DNA of 64,000 nucleotides from Escherichia coli (GTDB lineage: Bacteria > Pseudomonadota > Gammaproteobacteria > Enterobacterales > Enterobacteriaceae). The position numbers and the translations under genes were made by a program. The stretch lies in assembly GCF_003334815.1 (NCBI RefSeq), contig NZ_QOWO01000012.1. One strand, 5' to 3'. Below, in pieces: positions 1 through 10,185 of this stretch. The notes beneath the pieces are model-generated. The model was not told the origin of the DNA, ran no database searches, and was given only the letters and a program-made list of their open reading frames with translations. Within the stretch, counting starts at the first letter, position 1; every line of letters starts with the position of its first letter.

Positions 1-1306
1 GGTTTTGATGTTACCCAAGCTCGATTCACGCCAGATGACCGAGCTTCTGGATAGCGAACAGCGTCAGGGGCTGATGATTGAGCAGCATGTCGAAGCGGAG
101 CTGGCGAACGATCCGCCCAACGATTTAATGTGGTGGCGGCGTCTGTTCCGGGCGATTGATAAGTGGGCACCGCCAGGACAGCGTTTGTTATTGGTGACCA
201 CCGAAGGCCGCGTGATCGGCGCTGAACGCAGCGAAATGCAGATCATTCGTAACTTTATTGGTCAGGCCGATAACGCCGATCATCCGCAGAAGAAAAAGTA
301 TGGCCGCGTGGAACTGGTCGGTCCGTTCTCCGTGCGTGATGGCGAAGATAATTACCAACTTTATCTGATTCGTCCGGCCAGCAGTTCTCAATCCGATTTC
401 ATTAACTTACTGTTTGACCGCCCGCTATTACTGCTGATTGTCACCATGTTGGTCAGTACGCCGCTGCTGTTGTGGTTGGCCTGGAGTCTGGCAAAACCGG
501 CGCGTAAGCTGAAAAACGCTGCCGATGAAGTTGCCCAGGGAAACTTACGCCAGCACCCGGAACTGGAAGCGGGGCCACAGGAATTCCTTGCCGCAGGTGC
601 CAGTTTTAACCAGATGGTCACCGCGCTGGAGCGCATGATGACCTCTCAGCAGCGTCTGCTTTCTGATATCTCTCACGAGCTGCGCACCCCGCTGACGCGT
701 CTGCAACTGGGTACGGCGTTACTGCGCCGTCGTAGCGGTGAAAGCAAGGAACTGGAGCGTATTGAAACCGAAGCGCAACGTCTGGACAGCATGATCAACG
801 ATCTGTTGGTGATGTCACGTAATCAGCAAAAAAACGCGCTGGTTAGCGAAACCATCAAAGCCAACCAGTTGTGGAGTGAAGTGCTGGATAACGCGGCGTT
901 CGAAGCCGAGCAAATGGGCAAGTCGTTGACAGTTAACTTCCCGCCTGGGCCGTGGCCGCTGTACGGCAATCCGAACGCCCTGGAAAGTGCGCTGGAAAAC
1001 ATTGTTCGTAATGCTCTGCGTTATTCCCATACGAAGATTGAAGTGGGCTTTGCGGTAGATAAAGACGGTATCACCATTACGGTGGACGACGATGGTCCTG
1101 GCGTTAGCCCGGAAGATCGCGAACAGATTTTCCGTCCGTTCTATCGTACCGATGAAGCACGCGATCGTGAATCTGGCGGTACAGGTTTGGGGCTGGCGAT
1201 TGTTGAAACCGCCATTCAGCAGCATCGTGGCTGGGTGAAGGCAGAAGACAGCCCGCTGGGCGGTTTACGGCTGGTGATTTGGTTGCCGCTGTATAAGCGG
1301 AGTTAA
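1..1306 (+). CDS. cpxA: Sensor histidine kinase CpxA, 5'-truncated by the window edge (stop TAA 1304-1306)
   Basis: ORF 5..1306 translation has the H-box SHELRTPLTRL and ATP-binding G-boxes (DDDGPGV, GGTGLGLAIV); recognised as CpxA from about residue 25 onward, so the start codon lies upstream of position 1. Confidence 0.95.
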   Translation, partial: VLMLPKLDSRQMTELLDSEQRQGLMIEQHVEAELANDPPNDLMWWRRLFRAIDKWAPPGQRLLLVTTEGRVIGAERSEMQIIRNFIGQADNADHPQKKKYGRVELVGPFSVRDGEDNYQLYLIRPASSSQSDFINLLFDRPLLLLIVTMLVSTPLLLWLAWSLAKPARKLKNAADEVAQGNLRQHPELEAGPQEFLAAGASFNQMVTALERMMTSQQRLLSDISHELRTPLTRLQLGTALLRRRSGESKELERIETEAQRLDSMINDLLVMSRNQQKNALVSETIKANQLWSEVLDNAAFEAEQMGKSLTVNFPPGPWPLYGNPNALESALENIVRNALRYSHTKIEVGFAVDKDGITITVDDDGPGVSPEDREQIFRPFYRTDEARDRESGGTGLGLAIVETAIQQHRGWVKAEDSPLGGLRLVIWLPLYKRS

Positions 1307-3477: not shown

Positions 3478-4098
3478 TTATTTTTTCGCCGCAAAACGTG
3501 CCGCTGCTTCGTCCCAGTTCACCACGTTCCAGAACTCTTTAATGTAGTCCGGACGGCGGTTCTGGAATTTCAGGTAGTAAGCATGTTCCCACACATCCAG
3601 GCCCATAATCGGGAAGCCGGAAGCGCCAGAAATAGCTTCACCCATCAGCGGAGAATCCTGGTTAGCAGTAGAAACCACCGCCAGTTTATCGCCTTTCAGC
3701 ACCAGCCATGCCCAGCCGGAACCAAAGCGGGAAGCTGCCGCTTTTTCAAATTCTGCTTTGAAGTTATCAACGGAGCCGAAGTCACGTTCGATAGCCGCTT
3801 TCAGGTCACCCTGCAGGGTGGTGCCTTTTTTCAGACCTTTCCAGAACAGGCTGTGGTTAGCGTGACCGCCAGCGTTGTTGCGCAGTACGGTTTTCTTGTC
3901 TGCTGGCAGCTGGTCCAGTTTGGTGATCAGCTCTTCAACCGGCAGGTTGGCAAATTCTGGCAGGCTTTCCAGCGCCGCGTTGGCGTTGTTTACGTAGGTC
4001 TGATGGTGTTTGGTGTGGTGGATTTCCATGGTCTGCTTATCGAAGTGCGGTTCCAGGGCATCGTAAGCATACGGCAGGGATGGCAGGGTATAGCTCAT
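3478..4098 (-). CDS. sodA: Manganese superoxide dismutase SodA
   Basis: ORF 3478..4104; ATG at 4098 ([20 protein letters not shown]...) with GGAGATG SD; 206 aa; Mn/Fe-SOD signature DVWEHAYY present. Confidence 0.97.
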
Positions 4099-4382
4099 AT
4101 TCATCTCCAGTATTGTCGGGCGGCCGATTGTTAATGCCGCGTAAGCAGTTGGTTCATTATAGTTAATTAAATGATATTGAAAATGATTATCAATGCCGTA
4201 CTTTTCGTAAGGGTATGGTTTTGCAGGAAAATGCCCGAGATGTGAAGCAAATCACCCACTTAATGCCGTGATTGCCAGTAAATCGACAACGGCGGCAACA
4301 GGCGAAAGGTTAATCGACAGCACGATTTTTACACTCATCTCGTCGGAGATGTGACGCGACGAAAAATGATGAGGATAAGAAG

Positions 4383-5417
4383 ATGAGTAACGCGATTACG
4401 ATGGGGATATTTTGGCATTTGATCGGCGCGGCCAGTGCAGCCTGTTTTTACGCTCCGTTCAAAAAAGTAAAAAAATGGTCATGGGAAACCATGTGGTCAG
4501 TCGGTGGGATTGTTTCGTGGATTATTCTGCCGTGGGCCATCAGCGCCCTGTTACTACCGAATTTCTGGGCGTATTACAGCTCGTTTAGTCTCTCTACGCT
4601 ACTGCCTGTTTTTCTGTTCGGCGCTATGTGGGGGATCGGTAATATCAACTACGGCCTGACCATGCGTTATCTCGGCATGTCGATGGGAATTGGCATCGCC
4701 ATTGGCATTACGTTGATTGTCGGTACGCTGATGACGCCAATTATCAACGGCAATTTCGATGTGTTGATTAGCACCGAAGGCGGACGCATGACGTTGCTCG
4801 GCGTTCTGGTGGCGCTGATTGGCGTAGGGATTGTAACTCGCGCCGGGCAGTTGAAAGAGCGCAAGATGGGCATTAAAGCCGAAGAGTTCAATCTGAAAAA
4901 AGGGCTGGTGCTGGCGGTGATGTGCGGCATTTTCTCTGCCGGGATGTCCTTTGCGATGAACGCCGCAAAACCGATGCATGAAGCCGCTGCCGCACTTGGC
5001 GTCGATCCACTGTATGTCGCTCTGCCAAGCTATGTTGTCATCATGGGCGGCGGCGCGATCATTAACCTCGGTTTCTGTTTTATTCGTCTGGCAAAAGTGA
5101 AGGATTTGTCGCTAAAAGCCGACTTCTCGCTGGCAAAATCGCTGATCATTCACAATGTGTTACTCTCGACACTGGGCGGGTTGATGTGGTATCTGCAATT
5201 CTTTTTCTATGCCTGGGGCCACGCCCGCATTCCGGCGCAGTATGACTACATCAGTTGGATGCTGCATATGAGTTTCTATGTATTGTGCGGCGGTATCGTC
5301 GGGCTGGTGCTGAAAGAGTGGAACAATGCAGGACGCCGTCCGGTAACGGTGTTGAGCCTCGGTTGTGTGGTGATTATTGTCGCCGCTAACATCGTCGGCA
5401 TCGGCATGGCGAATTAA
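4383..5417 (+). CDS. rhaT: L-rhamnose-proton symporter RhaT
   Basis: 344-aa ORF, ATG 4383 with GAGGA SD; translation recognised as RhaT. Confidence 0.95.
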
Positions 5418-6262
5418 TCTTTCTGCGAATTGAGATGACGCCACTGGCTGGGCGTCATCCCGGTTTCCCGGGTAAACACCACCGAAAAATAGTTACTATC
5501 TTCAAAGCCACATTCGGTCGAAATATCACTGATTAACAGGCGGCTATGCTGGAGAAGATATTGCGCATGACACACTCTGACCTGTCGCAGATATTGATTG
5601 ATGGTCATTCCAGTCTGCTGGCGAAATTGCTGACGCAAAACGCGCTCACTGCACGATGCCTCATCACAAAATTTATCCAGCGCAAAGGGACTTTTCAGGC
5701 TAGCCGCCAGCCGGGTAATCAGCTTATCCAGCAACGTTTCGCTGGATGTTGGCGGCAACGAATCACTGGTGTAACGATGGCGATTCAGCAACATCACCAA
5801 CTGCCCGAACAGCAACTCAGCCATTTCGTTAGCAAACGGCACATGCTGACTACTTTCATGCTCAAGCTGACCGATAACCTGCCGCGCCTGCGCCATCCCC
5901 ATGCTACCTAAGCGCCAGTGTGGTTGCCCTGCGCTGGCGTTAAATCCCGGAATCGCCCCCTGCCAGTCAAGATTCAGCTTCAGACGCTCCGGGCAATAAA
6001 TAATATTCTGCAAAACCAGATCGTTAACGGAAGCGTAGGAGTGTTTATCGTCAGCATGAATGTAAAAGAGATCGCCACGGGTAATGCGATAAGGGCGATC
6101 GTTGAGTACATGCAGGCCATTACCGCGCCAGACAATCACCAGCTCACAAAAATCATGTGTATGTTCAGCAAAGACATCTTGCGGATAACGGTCAGCCACA
6201 GCGACTGCCTGCTGGTCGCTGGCAAAAAAATCATCTTTGAGAAGTTTTAACTGATGCGCCAC
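5414..6262 (-). CDS. rhaR: AraC-family rhamnose regulator RhaR
   Basis: ORF 5414..6436; recalled RhaR N-terminus [13 protein letters not shown] corresponds to a GTG start at 6262, 73 nt after the rhaS stop; C-terminal AraC-type HTH. Confidence 0.85.
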
Positions 6263-6335
6263 CGTGGCTACCTCGGCCAGAGAACGAAGTTGATTATTCG
6301 CAATATGGCGTACAAATACGTTGAGAAGATTCGCG

Positions 6336-7172
6336 TTATTGCAGAAAGCCATCCCGTCCCTGGCGAATATCACGCGGTGACCAGTTAAACTCTCGGCGAA
6401 AAAGCGTCGAAAAGTGGTTACTGTCGCTGAATCCACAGCGATAGTCGATGTCAGTAACGCTGGCCTCGCTGTGGCGTAGCAGATGTCGGGCTTTCATCAG
6501 TCGCAGGCGGTTCAGGTATCGCTGAGGCGTCAGTCCCGTTTGCTGCTTAAGCTGCCGATGTAGCGTACGCAGTGAAAGAGAAAATTGATCCGCCACGGCA
6601 TCCCAATTCACCTCATCGGCAAAATGGTCCTCCAGCCAGGCCAGAAGCAAGTTGAGACGTGATGCGCTGTTTTCCAGGTTCTCCTGCAAACTGCTTTTAC
6701 GCAGCAAGAGCAGTAATTGCATAAACAAGATCTCGCGACTGGCGGTCGAGGGTAAATCATTTTCCCCTTCCTGCTGTTCCATCTGTGCAACCAGCTGTCG
6801 CACCTGCTGCAATACGCTGTGGTTAACGCGCCAGTGAGACGGATACTGCCCATCCAGCTCTTGTGGCAGCAACTGATTCAGCCCGGCGAGAAACTGAAAT
6901 CGATCCGGCGAGCGATACAGCACATTGGTCAGACACAGATTATCGGTATGTTCATACAGATGCCGATCATGATCGCGTACGAAACAGACCGTGCCACCGG
7001 TGATGGTATAGGGCTGCCCATTAAACACATGAATACCCGTGCCATGTTCGACAATCACAATTTCATGAAAATCATGATGATGTTCAGGAAAATCCGCCTG
7101 CGGGAGCCGGGGTTCTATCGCCACGGACGCGTTACCAGACGGAAAAAAATCCACACTATGTAATACGGTCAT
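6336..7172 (-). CDS. rhaS: AraC-family rhamnose activator RhaS
   Basis: 278-aa [26 protein letters not shown]... recognised as RhaS; cupin N-domain plus AraC HTH. Confidence 0.93.

Positions 7173-10185
<3,013 letters not shown>

Follow-up and report, generated by a model that had tools for sequence, protein, structure and literature searches.

The rhaSR region and the start of rhaR

The analysed window, a stretch of 64,000 nt of Escherichia coli DNA, contains the sodA-rhaT-rhaR-rhaS-rhaBA locus. The gene order rhaS-rhaR, adjoining rhaT and divergent from rhaBAD, is common to Salmonella, Enterobacter and other loci. Compared with the K-12 record over 5 kb, the window has differences outside rhaR only, namely RhaS A243D, RhaB W51R and residue 73 of RhaT. 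The RhaR protein itself is identical to that of K-12 (b3906), where the gene likewise starts with GTG 73 nt after rhaS and has the same neighbours (rhaS, rhaT and rhaBAD). The following features are referred to below:

6336..7172, minus strand: rhaS coding sequence (278 aa), start codon ATG 7172..7170, stop codon TAA 6338..6336
7183..7178, minus strand: rhaS Shine-Dalgarno sequence AGGAGG, duplex with the 16S 3' end of -10.3 kcal/mol
5414..6262, minus strand: rhaR coding sequence (282 aa plus stop codon TAA 5416..5414), GTG start, translation identical to RefSeq WP_001336056.1
6260..6262, minus strand: rhaR start codon GTG, read directly
6270..6274, minus strand: rhaR Shine-Dalgarno sequence GAGGU, 7 nt 5' of the GTG
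6263..6335, minus strand: intercistronic spacer between rhaS and rhaR (73 nt), read directly
6293..6335, minus strand: conserved block (43 nt) with CGCGAA 6335..6330, TCAACGTATTT 6324..6314 and AATAAT 6298..6293
6350..6352, minus strand: upstream in-frame ATG within the last rhaS codons (formed by GAT GGC), the older start of a 312-aa RhaR
6434..6436, minus strand: GTG that opens a mechanical 340-aa open reading frame, not a plausible start

The sequence-only reading had placed the start of rhaR at the GTG at 6262, behind an untranslated spacer of 73 nt. Both positions were found in the DNA: GTG 6262..6260 is followed by GCG CAT CAG TTA AAA CTT CTC, i.e. (M)AHQLKLL, the same N-terminus as in RefSeq, and the spacer extends from 6335 to 6263 directly behind the rhaS stop codon. 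A Shine-Dalgarno sequence, which was to be sought on the minus strand within 6263..6280, is present as GAGGU at 6274..6270, and its duplex with the 16S 3' end has a predicted energy of -7.2 kcal/mol. In RefSeq/PGAP, rhaR is a gene of 849 nt that begins 73 nt after rhaS (K-12 and other E. coli records; all 5 of the 5 compared annotate the GTG), and the encoded protein equals WP_001336056.1, the RhaR of K-12 and of strain 52F4. The start at GTG 6262 is thus already known, and our analysis re-derives the current RefSeq annotation.

The protein family data are in agreement with this start. The 282-aa RhaR scores 578.2 bits against the NCBIfam profile NF010025 (cut-off 525; profile positions 1-281 of 282) and 568.8 bits against NF010027 (cut-off 384; profile positions 1-282 of 282). 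Precomputed matches on the identical or a near-identical protein to Pfam PF02311, PF12833 and PF00165 give the architecture of an N-terminal AraC-type ligand-binding (cupin) domain followed by two AraC-type helix-turn-helix motifs. By score, by an N-terminus at profile position 1, by domains and by gene order the protein is a RhaR equivalog of the AraC/XylS family. E. coli RhaR is also represented in the PDB by 5U93 and 5U9E; the crystallised N-terminal domain (5U93) begins with MAHQLKLL and shares its N-terminus with the RhaR of the window. Residue 8 of RhaS aligns with residue 11 of RhaR, such that the short form of RhaR matches its paralogue. Among the 120 best homologue clusters, 100 have a length of 282 aa, while a length of 312 aa is found in E. 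coli clusters only.

We then compared the start across relatives. The position of the RhaR N-terminus is constant in 34 related genomes and in 42 unique metagenome junctions. At the aligned start codon 27 of the 34 genome loci have GTG and 4 have TTG; three loci from Budviciaceae use an ATG one codon downstream of the aligned position. The metagenome junctions start with GTG (31), ATG (8) or TTG (2). GTG or TTG is thus found at 31/34 genome loci and 33/42 metagenome junctions, with GTG e.g. in Salmonella, Enterobacter and Superficieibacter and TTG in Atlantibacter, while ATG occurs in the Citrobacter freundii group and in Budviciaceae. Within the 30 nt before the start the only conserved positions are the G's of the Shine-Dalgarno sequence (pairwise identity 0.77 and 0.88). 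Since both the codon and these G's are conserved, chance does not account for the alignment of the start. Of 5,426 E. coli genomes, 5,418 share the junction of rhaS and rhaR at 95-100% identity and thus provide no power for finding natural knock-outs of the upstream frame. Overall, Enterobacterales share the position of the RhaR N-terminus and its Shine-Dalgarno sequence, and the start is the one used in curated annotation, in the family profiles and in the constructs that were crystallised.

Longer forms of RhaR

The frame of rhaR remains open upstream of the GTG. As the sequence-only reading had pointed out, a 340-aa open reading frame (5414..6436) overlaps the 3' end of rhaS in another frame, and we found the overlap to comprise the last 101 nt of rhaS. 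This reading frame is mechanical: GTG 6436, the "upstream M" of the sequence-only reading, lies 98 nt inside rhaS and is listed only as the first possible start codon behind a stop, and relatives have not kept the frame. The one real rival to GTG 6262 is a different codon and the one annotated historically, ATG 6352..6350, from which a protein of 312 aa would be made. The older annotation shares the frame and the 282 C-terminal residues with the current one and adds 30 residues, whose frame is uninterrupted in E. coli and its closest relative (L003) alone.

One explanation for the older annotation is that translation begins wholly or partly at ATG 6352..6350, with ribosomes that terminate on rhaS reinitiating a few bases upstream by translational coupling. 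The frame from 6352 to 6262 is open in E. coli and L003, and the ATG sits 11 nt 5' of the rhaS stop codon TAA 6338..6336, i.e. a start near a stop as in coupled cistrons. Termination-reinitiation is feasible with this arrangement, and a small amount of the 312-aa form may be made by it. The purine run before the ATG gives a duplex of -7.8 kcal/mol; this Shine-Dalgarno-like run, however, abuts the ATG with essentially zero spacing. The 312-aa protein is deposited on at least 1000 contigs in public databases, yet a match of this form to the NCBIfam RhaR profiles begins only at residue 32. The 30-aa extension has no match in the equivalog profiles NF010025 and NF010027 (282 positions) and no counterpart in RhaS, and the N-terminal domain in 5U93 folds and crystallises without it.

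Outside E. coli and L003, a stop within 25 codons interrupts the frame 5' of rhaR in 31/33 loci, this stop often being the TGA inside the tGAGGt Shine-Dalgarno sequence itself. Stops or frameshifts close the 312-aa extension in the same number of loci, including a 94%-identical relative (L004) in which 1 nt is deleted and a TGA lies in frame 3 codons 5' of the GTG. None of these 33 loci has a start equivalent to ATG 6352. Moreover, an E. coli change from GGC to GGT that is synonymous in rhaS replaces Ala by Val in the extension, indicating that selection follows the rhaS frame. Initiation at ATG 6352 is in our view very improbable. Forms of 288 aa in the databases were considered as evidence for an interrupted frame as well and were rejected, being calls of a CTG start.

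The reading that we favour, with a probability of roughly 0.87, is that rhaR, the second gene of the rhaSR operon, is translated from GTG 6262..6260 into a product of 282 aa. Its own GAGGU Shine-Dalgarno sequence 7 nt upstream would serve initiation, and the rhaS terminus at a distance of 73 nt would play no part in it. That the frame extends further upstream in E. coli, giving 312 aa from ATG 6352 or 340 aa from GTG 6436, would be accidental, no stop having arisen there.

As this gene is well studied and the point already in print, the location of the start in itself matters very little. In public databases, however, RhaR forms of 282 aa, 312 aa and even 288 aa coexist, such that residue numbering, construct design and rhamnose-inducible cassettes can be off by 30 residues. 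Older genetics (e.g. RhaR D276) is numbered on the 312-aa form.

Levels of RhaR and RhaS

The sequence-only reading had further proposed that the GTG start and the spacer keep RhaR below RhaS, which we consider plausible. In all 32 loci of 32 compared rhaS starts with ATG, while rhaR has GTG or TTG in most lineages, and the Shine-Dalgarno duplex of rhaS is the stronger of the two (-10.3 vs -7.2 kcal/mol). A GTG or TTG start behind a 5-nt Shine-Dalgarno sequence, compared with ATG behind 6 nt for rhaS, would yield less RhaR than RhaS per transcript. A lower level would suit a sensor-activator that is needed in small amounts only. The weak start codon is not obligatory though, given the ATG of rhaR in the C. 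freundii group and in Budviciaceae.

Data from 10,643 E. coli genomes published in 2024 show that the start codon of rhaR is almost always non-ATG and group the gene with other sugar regulators (PMC11445065). In nearly all E. coli the GTG of rhaR is kept, and sugar-regulator genes such as lacI, cra and mlc have non-ATG start codons as well (PMC11445065). When the GTG of lacI was changed to ATG, LacI was raised and adaptation to lactose was delayed (PMC11445065). The same paper provides a general figure of 8- to 12-fold by which a non-ATG start lowers the protein level, which is not specific to rhaR. The likeness is also limited in that RhaR is an activator encoded by the second cistron of an operon, whereas regulators of the lacI type are separately transcribed repressors. 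A start-codon swap in rhaR has not been reported in the accessible literature.

The rhaS-rhaR spacer

The spacer between the two genes is not a passive gap. Directly after the rhaS stop codon, relatives share the pattern CGCGA-N6-TCAMCGTTTT-N13-19-RATAAT (6335..6293 in the window). Across 32 Enterobacteriaceae loci, 16 alignment columns of this block have a pairwise identity of at least 0.9, compared to a mean of 0.50 at 4-fold degenerate positions in rhaR. This stretch, the first 43 nt of the spacer, is therefore under strong sequence constraint, far above that of synonymous sites. In metagenomes 61 of 80 matches to the motif lie at rhaS-rhaR junctions. The other 19 are unrelated and alike in pattern only, which led us to reject a dispersed repeat as an origin of the block. 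Neither Rfam nor the searchable literature provided a description of the block; it is new here, and any function given to it below is a candidate one.

Several simple origins were considered and rejected. Read-through of the rhaS stop codon into the block does not fit, since in Buttiauxella and Cedecea the TAA is followed by an extra T, which disrupts the frame. A relic of a RhaR or RhaS half-site was suggested by the likeness of the E. coli sequence to ATCGACGTTTTTTACG of the rhaSR promoter and to ATCTTCTC of the RhaS sites, but this likeness is not conserved. The RhaR half-sites that are conserved among 32 aligned promoters, TCTTrAAAAA..GAC and its inverse, bear no resemblance to the conserved block. 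An intrinsic terminator was not found in the spacer.

In relatives the spacer measures 71-158 nt, the long ones containing REP/BIME-like or other palindromic insertions. REP/BIME elements are known to occur between cistrons, e.g. between malE and malF. In Salmonella, Citrobacter and some Buttiauxella, palindromes of the GCCGGATG...CTTATCCGGCCTAC type lie between the block and the Shine-Dalgarno sequence. The spacer of the window, unlike those of Salmonella and Citrobacter, is free of REP and shows no marked structure over its 73 nt.

The constraint could act at the level of RNA, i.e. the block could form a hairpin, a processing site or a structure that masks the Shine-Dalgarno sequence and thereby tunes rhaR translation from the rhaSR transcript. 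Kluyvera-like spacers fold into a long hairpin with ACCUCA paired to the UGAGGU of the Shine-Dalgarno sequence (z -4.6 to -5.7). The only match of a Kluyvera locus in Rfam 15 was a chance one to a snoRNA, below the gathering score, and no match was obtained for 6150..6450 of the window. Among 47 unique spacers z was below -2 in 19%, with a mean of -1.0; the E. coli spacer, with z of +0.59 and +0.74, folds no more stably than its shuffled versions. A T-run and an A-run can pair in many lineages (73.6% of cells paired). However, RNAalifold returned no consensus structure in either 20 or 47 sequences, covariation for the proposed hairpin is weak, with 2 of its 7 pairs broken in about half of the sequences, and the invariant bases are kept even where their pairing partners are not. 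We thus regard an element acting in RNA as unlikely.

An element acting at the level of DNA has somewhat better prospects, although it is tentative as well. Most simply, the first 43 nt would be a factor-assisted internal promoter, with a -10-like RATAAT (6298..6293) and a protein site over the -35 region, from which RhaR would be made independently of rhaS transcription. The candidate -10 element AATAAT of the window matches TATAAT at 5 of 6 positions, and RATAAT or AATACT is conserved in 31/32 Enterobacteriaceae loci. Invariant within the hexamer are A-11, T-10, A-9 and T-7, which by an established promoter rule carry the greatest weight in sigma-70 -10 elements. REP insertions, which occurred independently in several genera, always lie 3' of the block and left it intact.

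No -35 hexamer is present at 16-18 nt, and a consensus scan of the spacer returned no promoter; by eye, the best hexamer at a spacing of 17 nt reads ACGTAT in E. coli and CCGTTT in other loci. The centre of CGCGA-N6-TCAMC lies about 29.5 nt 5' of the -10-like hexamer, which corresponds to the geometry of a class II activator. With CRP as this activator, however, the variable base (C or A in TCAMC) is the one that a CRP site should keep, and by our own estimate about one 7/10 match to a CRP core should arise by chance in every two such spacers. The pattern T-C-A-x-NNNx-T-T also fits, by eye, the IHF core WATCAANNNNTTR. In the searchable literature we found nothing on an internal promoter in this spacer.

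It is conceivable, though doubtful, that the block is a conserved, locus-specific cis-element of Enterobacteriaceae that sets rhaR expression apart from that of rhaS, e.g. as a factor-assisted internal promoter supplying the basal RhaR with which rhamnose is sensed. If the block was indeed an internal promoter, RhaR would be raised independently of RhaS rather than lowered. Control of RhaR independently of RhaS by the block would extend the textbook rhamnose cascade by one step and, if true, would concern the many vectors into which the rhaSR fragment has been built.

The rhaR gene and its GTG start

This part of the window is the rhamnose regulatory locus of E. coli; its genes, in window coordinates, are:

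3478..4104, minus strand, sodA
4383..5417, plus strand, rhaT
6262..6260, minus strand, GTG start of rhaR, a gene of 849 nt in RefSeq
7172..6336, minus strand, rhaS (278 aa), stop codon TAA at 6338..6336
7460..8929, plus strand, rhaB

Every test applied identifies the gene next to rhaS as rhaR: score against the profiles, domain composition, register of the N-terminus and order of the genes. A 340-aa frame (5414..6436) overlaps the 3' end of rhaS by 101 nt in a different reading frame. It is a mechanical product of ORF listing, since a listed frame opens at the first start-type codon past a stop. Four in-frame start-type codons lie within it: GTG 6436, GTG 6373, ATG 6352 and GTG 6262. The sequence-only reading had placed the start at GTG 6262 behind an untranslated spacer of 73 nt, and all its coordinates were borne out on the minus strand. 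After the GTG at 6262..6260 the codons read AHQLKLL, and the spacer (6335..6263) is 73 nt long. In the interval it had named for a Shine-Dalgarno search, GAGGU is found at 6274..6270, 7 nt before the GTG, with a predicted pairing to the 16S rRNA 3' end of -7.2 kcal/mol.

Annotation, family profiles, structures and comparative loci all support this start. In RefSeq, rhaR begins 73 nt past rhaS in K-12 MG1655 as well as in every other E. coli record fetched. Two NCBIfam RhaR equivalog profiles of 282 positions each match the 282-aa protein from end to end. Two structures of the RhaR N-terminal domain share its N-terminus, 5U93 opening with MAHQLKLL. RhaR residue 11 aligns with RhaS residue 8, such that the 282-aa form and RhaS are equal in N-terminal length. 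Current annotation already has both the GTG start and the 73-nt spacer, and a published paper (PMC11445065) has commented on the non-ATG start, so that neither is new. A 288-aa RhaR (MAEVATV...), called from a CTG that precedes the GTG by six codons, is annotated in some assemblies of Shigella dysenteriae and E. coli (loci L042, L043 and L044, position 1201). Their DNA is otherwise that of the usual junction, which makes this call an annotation oddity.

The convergent genes rhaR (minus) and rhaT (plus) share the 4 nt 5414..5417, in which their stop codons overlap; a terminator would not fit between the two genes. In E. coli strain 5735 (L142, 3384..4767) an ISVsa5 element (IS4-like) is located in the rhaT 3' end, adjoining the rhaR stop and beside a short rhaT remnant annotated as a pseudogene. 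RhaT residue 73 is R in L001, from a K-12 MG1655 isolate (NZ_CP032667.1), and L in the window (4600) and 32 other loci; the R is probably private to this laboratory isolate.

A 2-kb query from the locus was matched by 5,424 of 5,426 complete E. coli genomes. The sole perfect match free of an insertion was strain 52F4 (NZ_CM147848.1), the same at every base. Among the loci and E. coli records compared, only this strain has in common with the window RhaS A243D (6445, rhaS codon 243) and RhaB W51R (7610, rhaB codon 51). The former is two residues off D241, which is reported as a sigma-70 contact. Both residues are otherwise invariant (A243 in 43 loci, W51 in 25); the substitutions may be genuine and cause loss of function, or may stem from sequencing error.

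Comparison across Enterobacterales and the ATG at 6352

The strongest line of evidence for the GTG start is the comparison of related sequences. With one genome scanned per species, 34 Enterobacterales loci with a rhaS-rhaR pair were obtained. Of these, 27 have GTG as the codon aligned to E. coli residue 1 and four have TTG (Atlantibacter and one mislabelled relative), and in the three Budviciaceae an ATG lies one codon downstream. At the same position 42 further unique junctions from metagenomes had GTG (31), ATG (8) or TTG (2); in the remaining one the alignment was shifted by one codon, with a GTG one codon upstream. GTG is used in Salmonella, Enterobacter hormaechei and Superficieibacter, ATG in Citrobacter freundii. 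Within the 30 nt upstream, the Shine-Dalgarno G's are conserved (pairwise identity 0.77 and 0.88), as is the start codon itself, with 0.25-0.49 at the other positions. Conservation limited in this way is characteristic of an initiation region that acts independently.

Leaving aside E. coli and the relative L003, which is 98% identical to it, 31 of 33 loci have an in-frame stop at most 25 codons upstream. In 16 loci it is just 3 codons away, usually as the TGA within a tGAGGt Shine-Dalgarno sequence, and the 94%-identical relative L004 combines a 1-nt deletion in the spacer with a TGA within the Shine-Dalgarno sequence. The true competitor of GTG 6262 would be ATG 6352 rather than GTG 6436, giving the 312-aa RhaR of older annotation, perhaps as a minor long form. 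We consider this very improbable. The ATG, which arises from the rhaS codons GAT GGC, precedes the rhaS stop by 11 nt, a spacing able to support termination-reinitiation, and its frame is open in E. coli; however, a purine run abuts it with zero spacing, and neither start nor extension is conserved in relatives, an equivalent start being found in 0 of the 33 other loci. The profiles match the 312-aa form from residue 32 on, such that the 30-residue extension matches nothing in them, nor has it a counterpart in the paralogue RhaS. Moreover, E. coli polymorphisms that are silent for rhaS alter it. In public data both forms are found on at least 1000 contigs each. Among the best 120 homologue clusters 100 have 282 aa, and the 312-aa length is restricted to E. 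coli clusters.

A conserved block in the rhaS-rhaR spacer

Judged from the alignments, the spacer upstream of GTG 6262 is not in free drift. Across Enterobacteriaceae its first 43 nt vary much less than synonymous sites do: in 32 loci, chosen without regard to this block, 16 columns within the initial ~45 nt had a pairwise identity of at least 0.9, compared to a mean of 0.50 at 4-fold degenerate sites of rhaR (1 of 28 at 0.9). The conserved order is CGCG, then TCA.CGT.TT, then ATA.T, and the motif CGCGA-N6-TCAMCGTTTT-N13-19-RATAAT covers 6293..6335 on the minus strand with these elements:

6335..6330, minus strand, CGCGAA
6324..6314, minus strand, TCAACGTATTT
6298..6293, minus strand, AATAAT

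In metagenomes the pattern matched 91 stretches with 80 readable sites, 61 of which are rhaS-rhaR junctions. The other 19 are alike in pattern alone, so that the block is locus-specific and no repeat family.

Spacers of 105-158 nt are found in Salmonella, Citrobacter, some Buttiauxella and Atlantibacter. They result from inserted REP/BIME-like (GCCGGATG...CTTATCCGGCCTAC) or other palindromes, in Atlantibacter a different, GC-rich one. Without exception the palindromes are inserted between the block and the Shine-Dalgarno sequence. The loci concerned are:

L047 (Salmonella), 1149..1300; L049 (C. freundii), 1144..1300
L005, L010, L034, L017, L020-L022; L023-L025, L030

In E. coli NCTC9064 (L045, 1788..2571) everything from fdhD as far as mid-spacer is lost through an IS1-associated deletion, whose end lies 2 nt upstream of AATAAT (window 6300). 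Intact rhaR and rhaT are kept; rhaS and rhaBAD are gone.

The block matched no Rfam family and was not found in the searchable literature, which includes only part of the primary rha papers. No consensus RNA structure was found for it, the one proposable hairpin being poorly supported, and a function at the DNA level would fit the pattern of invariant bases better. Our leading guess, a tentative one, is an internal promoter. The -10-like hexamer has invariant A-11, T-10, A-9 and T-7, and a conserved 22-nt stretch over the -35 region is CRP-site-like at class II distance, or IHF-core-like; yet a consensus scan returned no -35 hexamer in the spacer, and the variable base of the block is the one that CRP should keep. 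An IHF/CRP-type site is likewise a guess. An operator relic of RhaR or RhaS was rejected by promoter comparison.

Translation of rhaR relative to rhaS

The E. coli spacer does not exceed shuffled sequence in predicted structure (z +0.59 and +0.74), and nothing suggests masking of the Shine-Dalgarno sequence in this organism. In Kluyvera-like spacers (L035, L007, L008, L052, L062, L127) the rhaR UGAGGU Shine-Dalgarno sequence pairs with ACCUCA within a long hairpin (z -2.1 to -5.7 versus shuffles), a fold absent from E. coli and Enterobacter. This looks like translational masking specific to that lineage and missing from E. coli.

Most probably rhaR is translated from its own initiation region 73 nt past the rhaS stop, a distance that precludes coupling by overlap. 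The sequence-only reading had added that the non-ATG start and the spacer would keep RhaR low relative to RhaS. Against this corollary counts that ATG suffices for rhaR in the C. freundii group and Budviciaceae. An 8- to 12-fold lower yield is cited for GTG/TTG starts in general, and in the case of lacI the GTG was shown to matter in the mouse gut (PMC11445065). Since rhaS starts with ATG in 32 of 32 loci behind a strong Shine-Dalgarno sequence (AGGAGG, -10.3 kcal/mol in E. coli), whereas rhaR mostly has GTG or TTG and a 5-nt Shine-Dalgarno sequence, it is reasonable that RhaR would be produced more slowly than RhaS.
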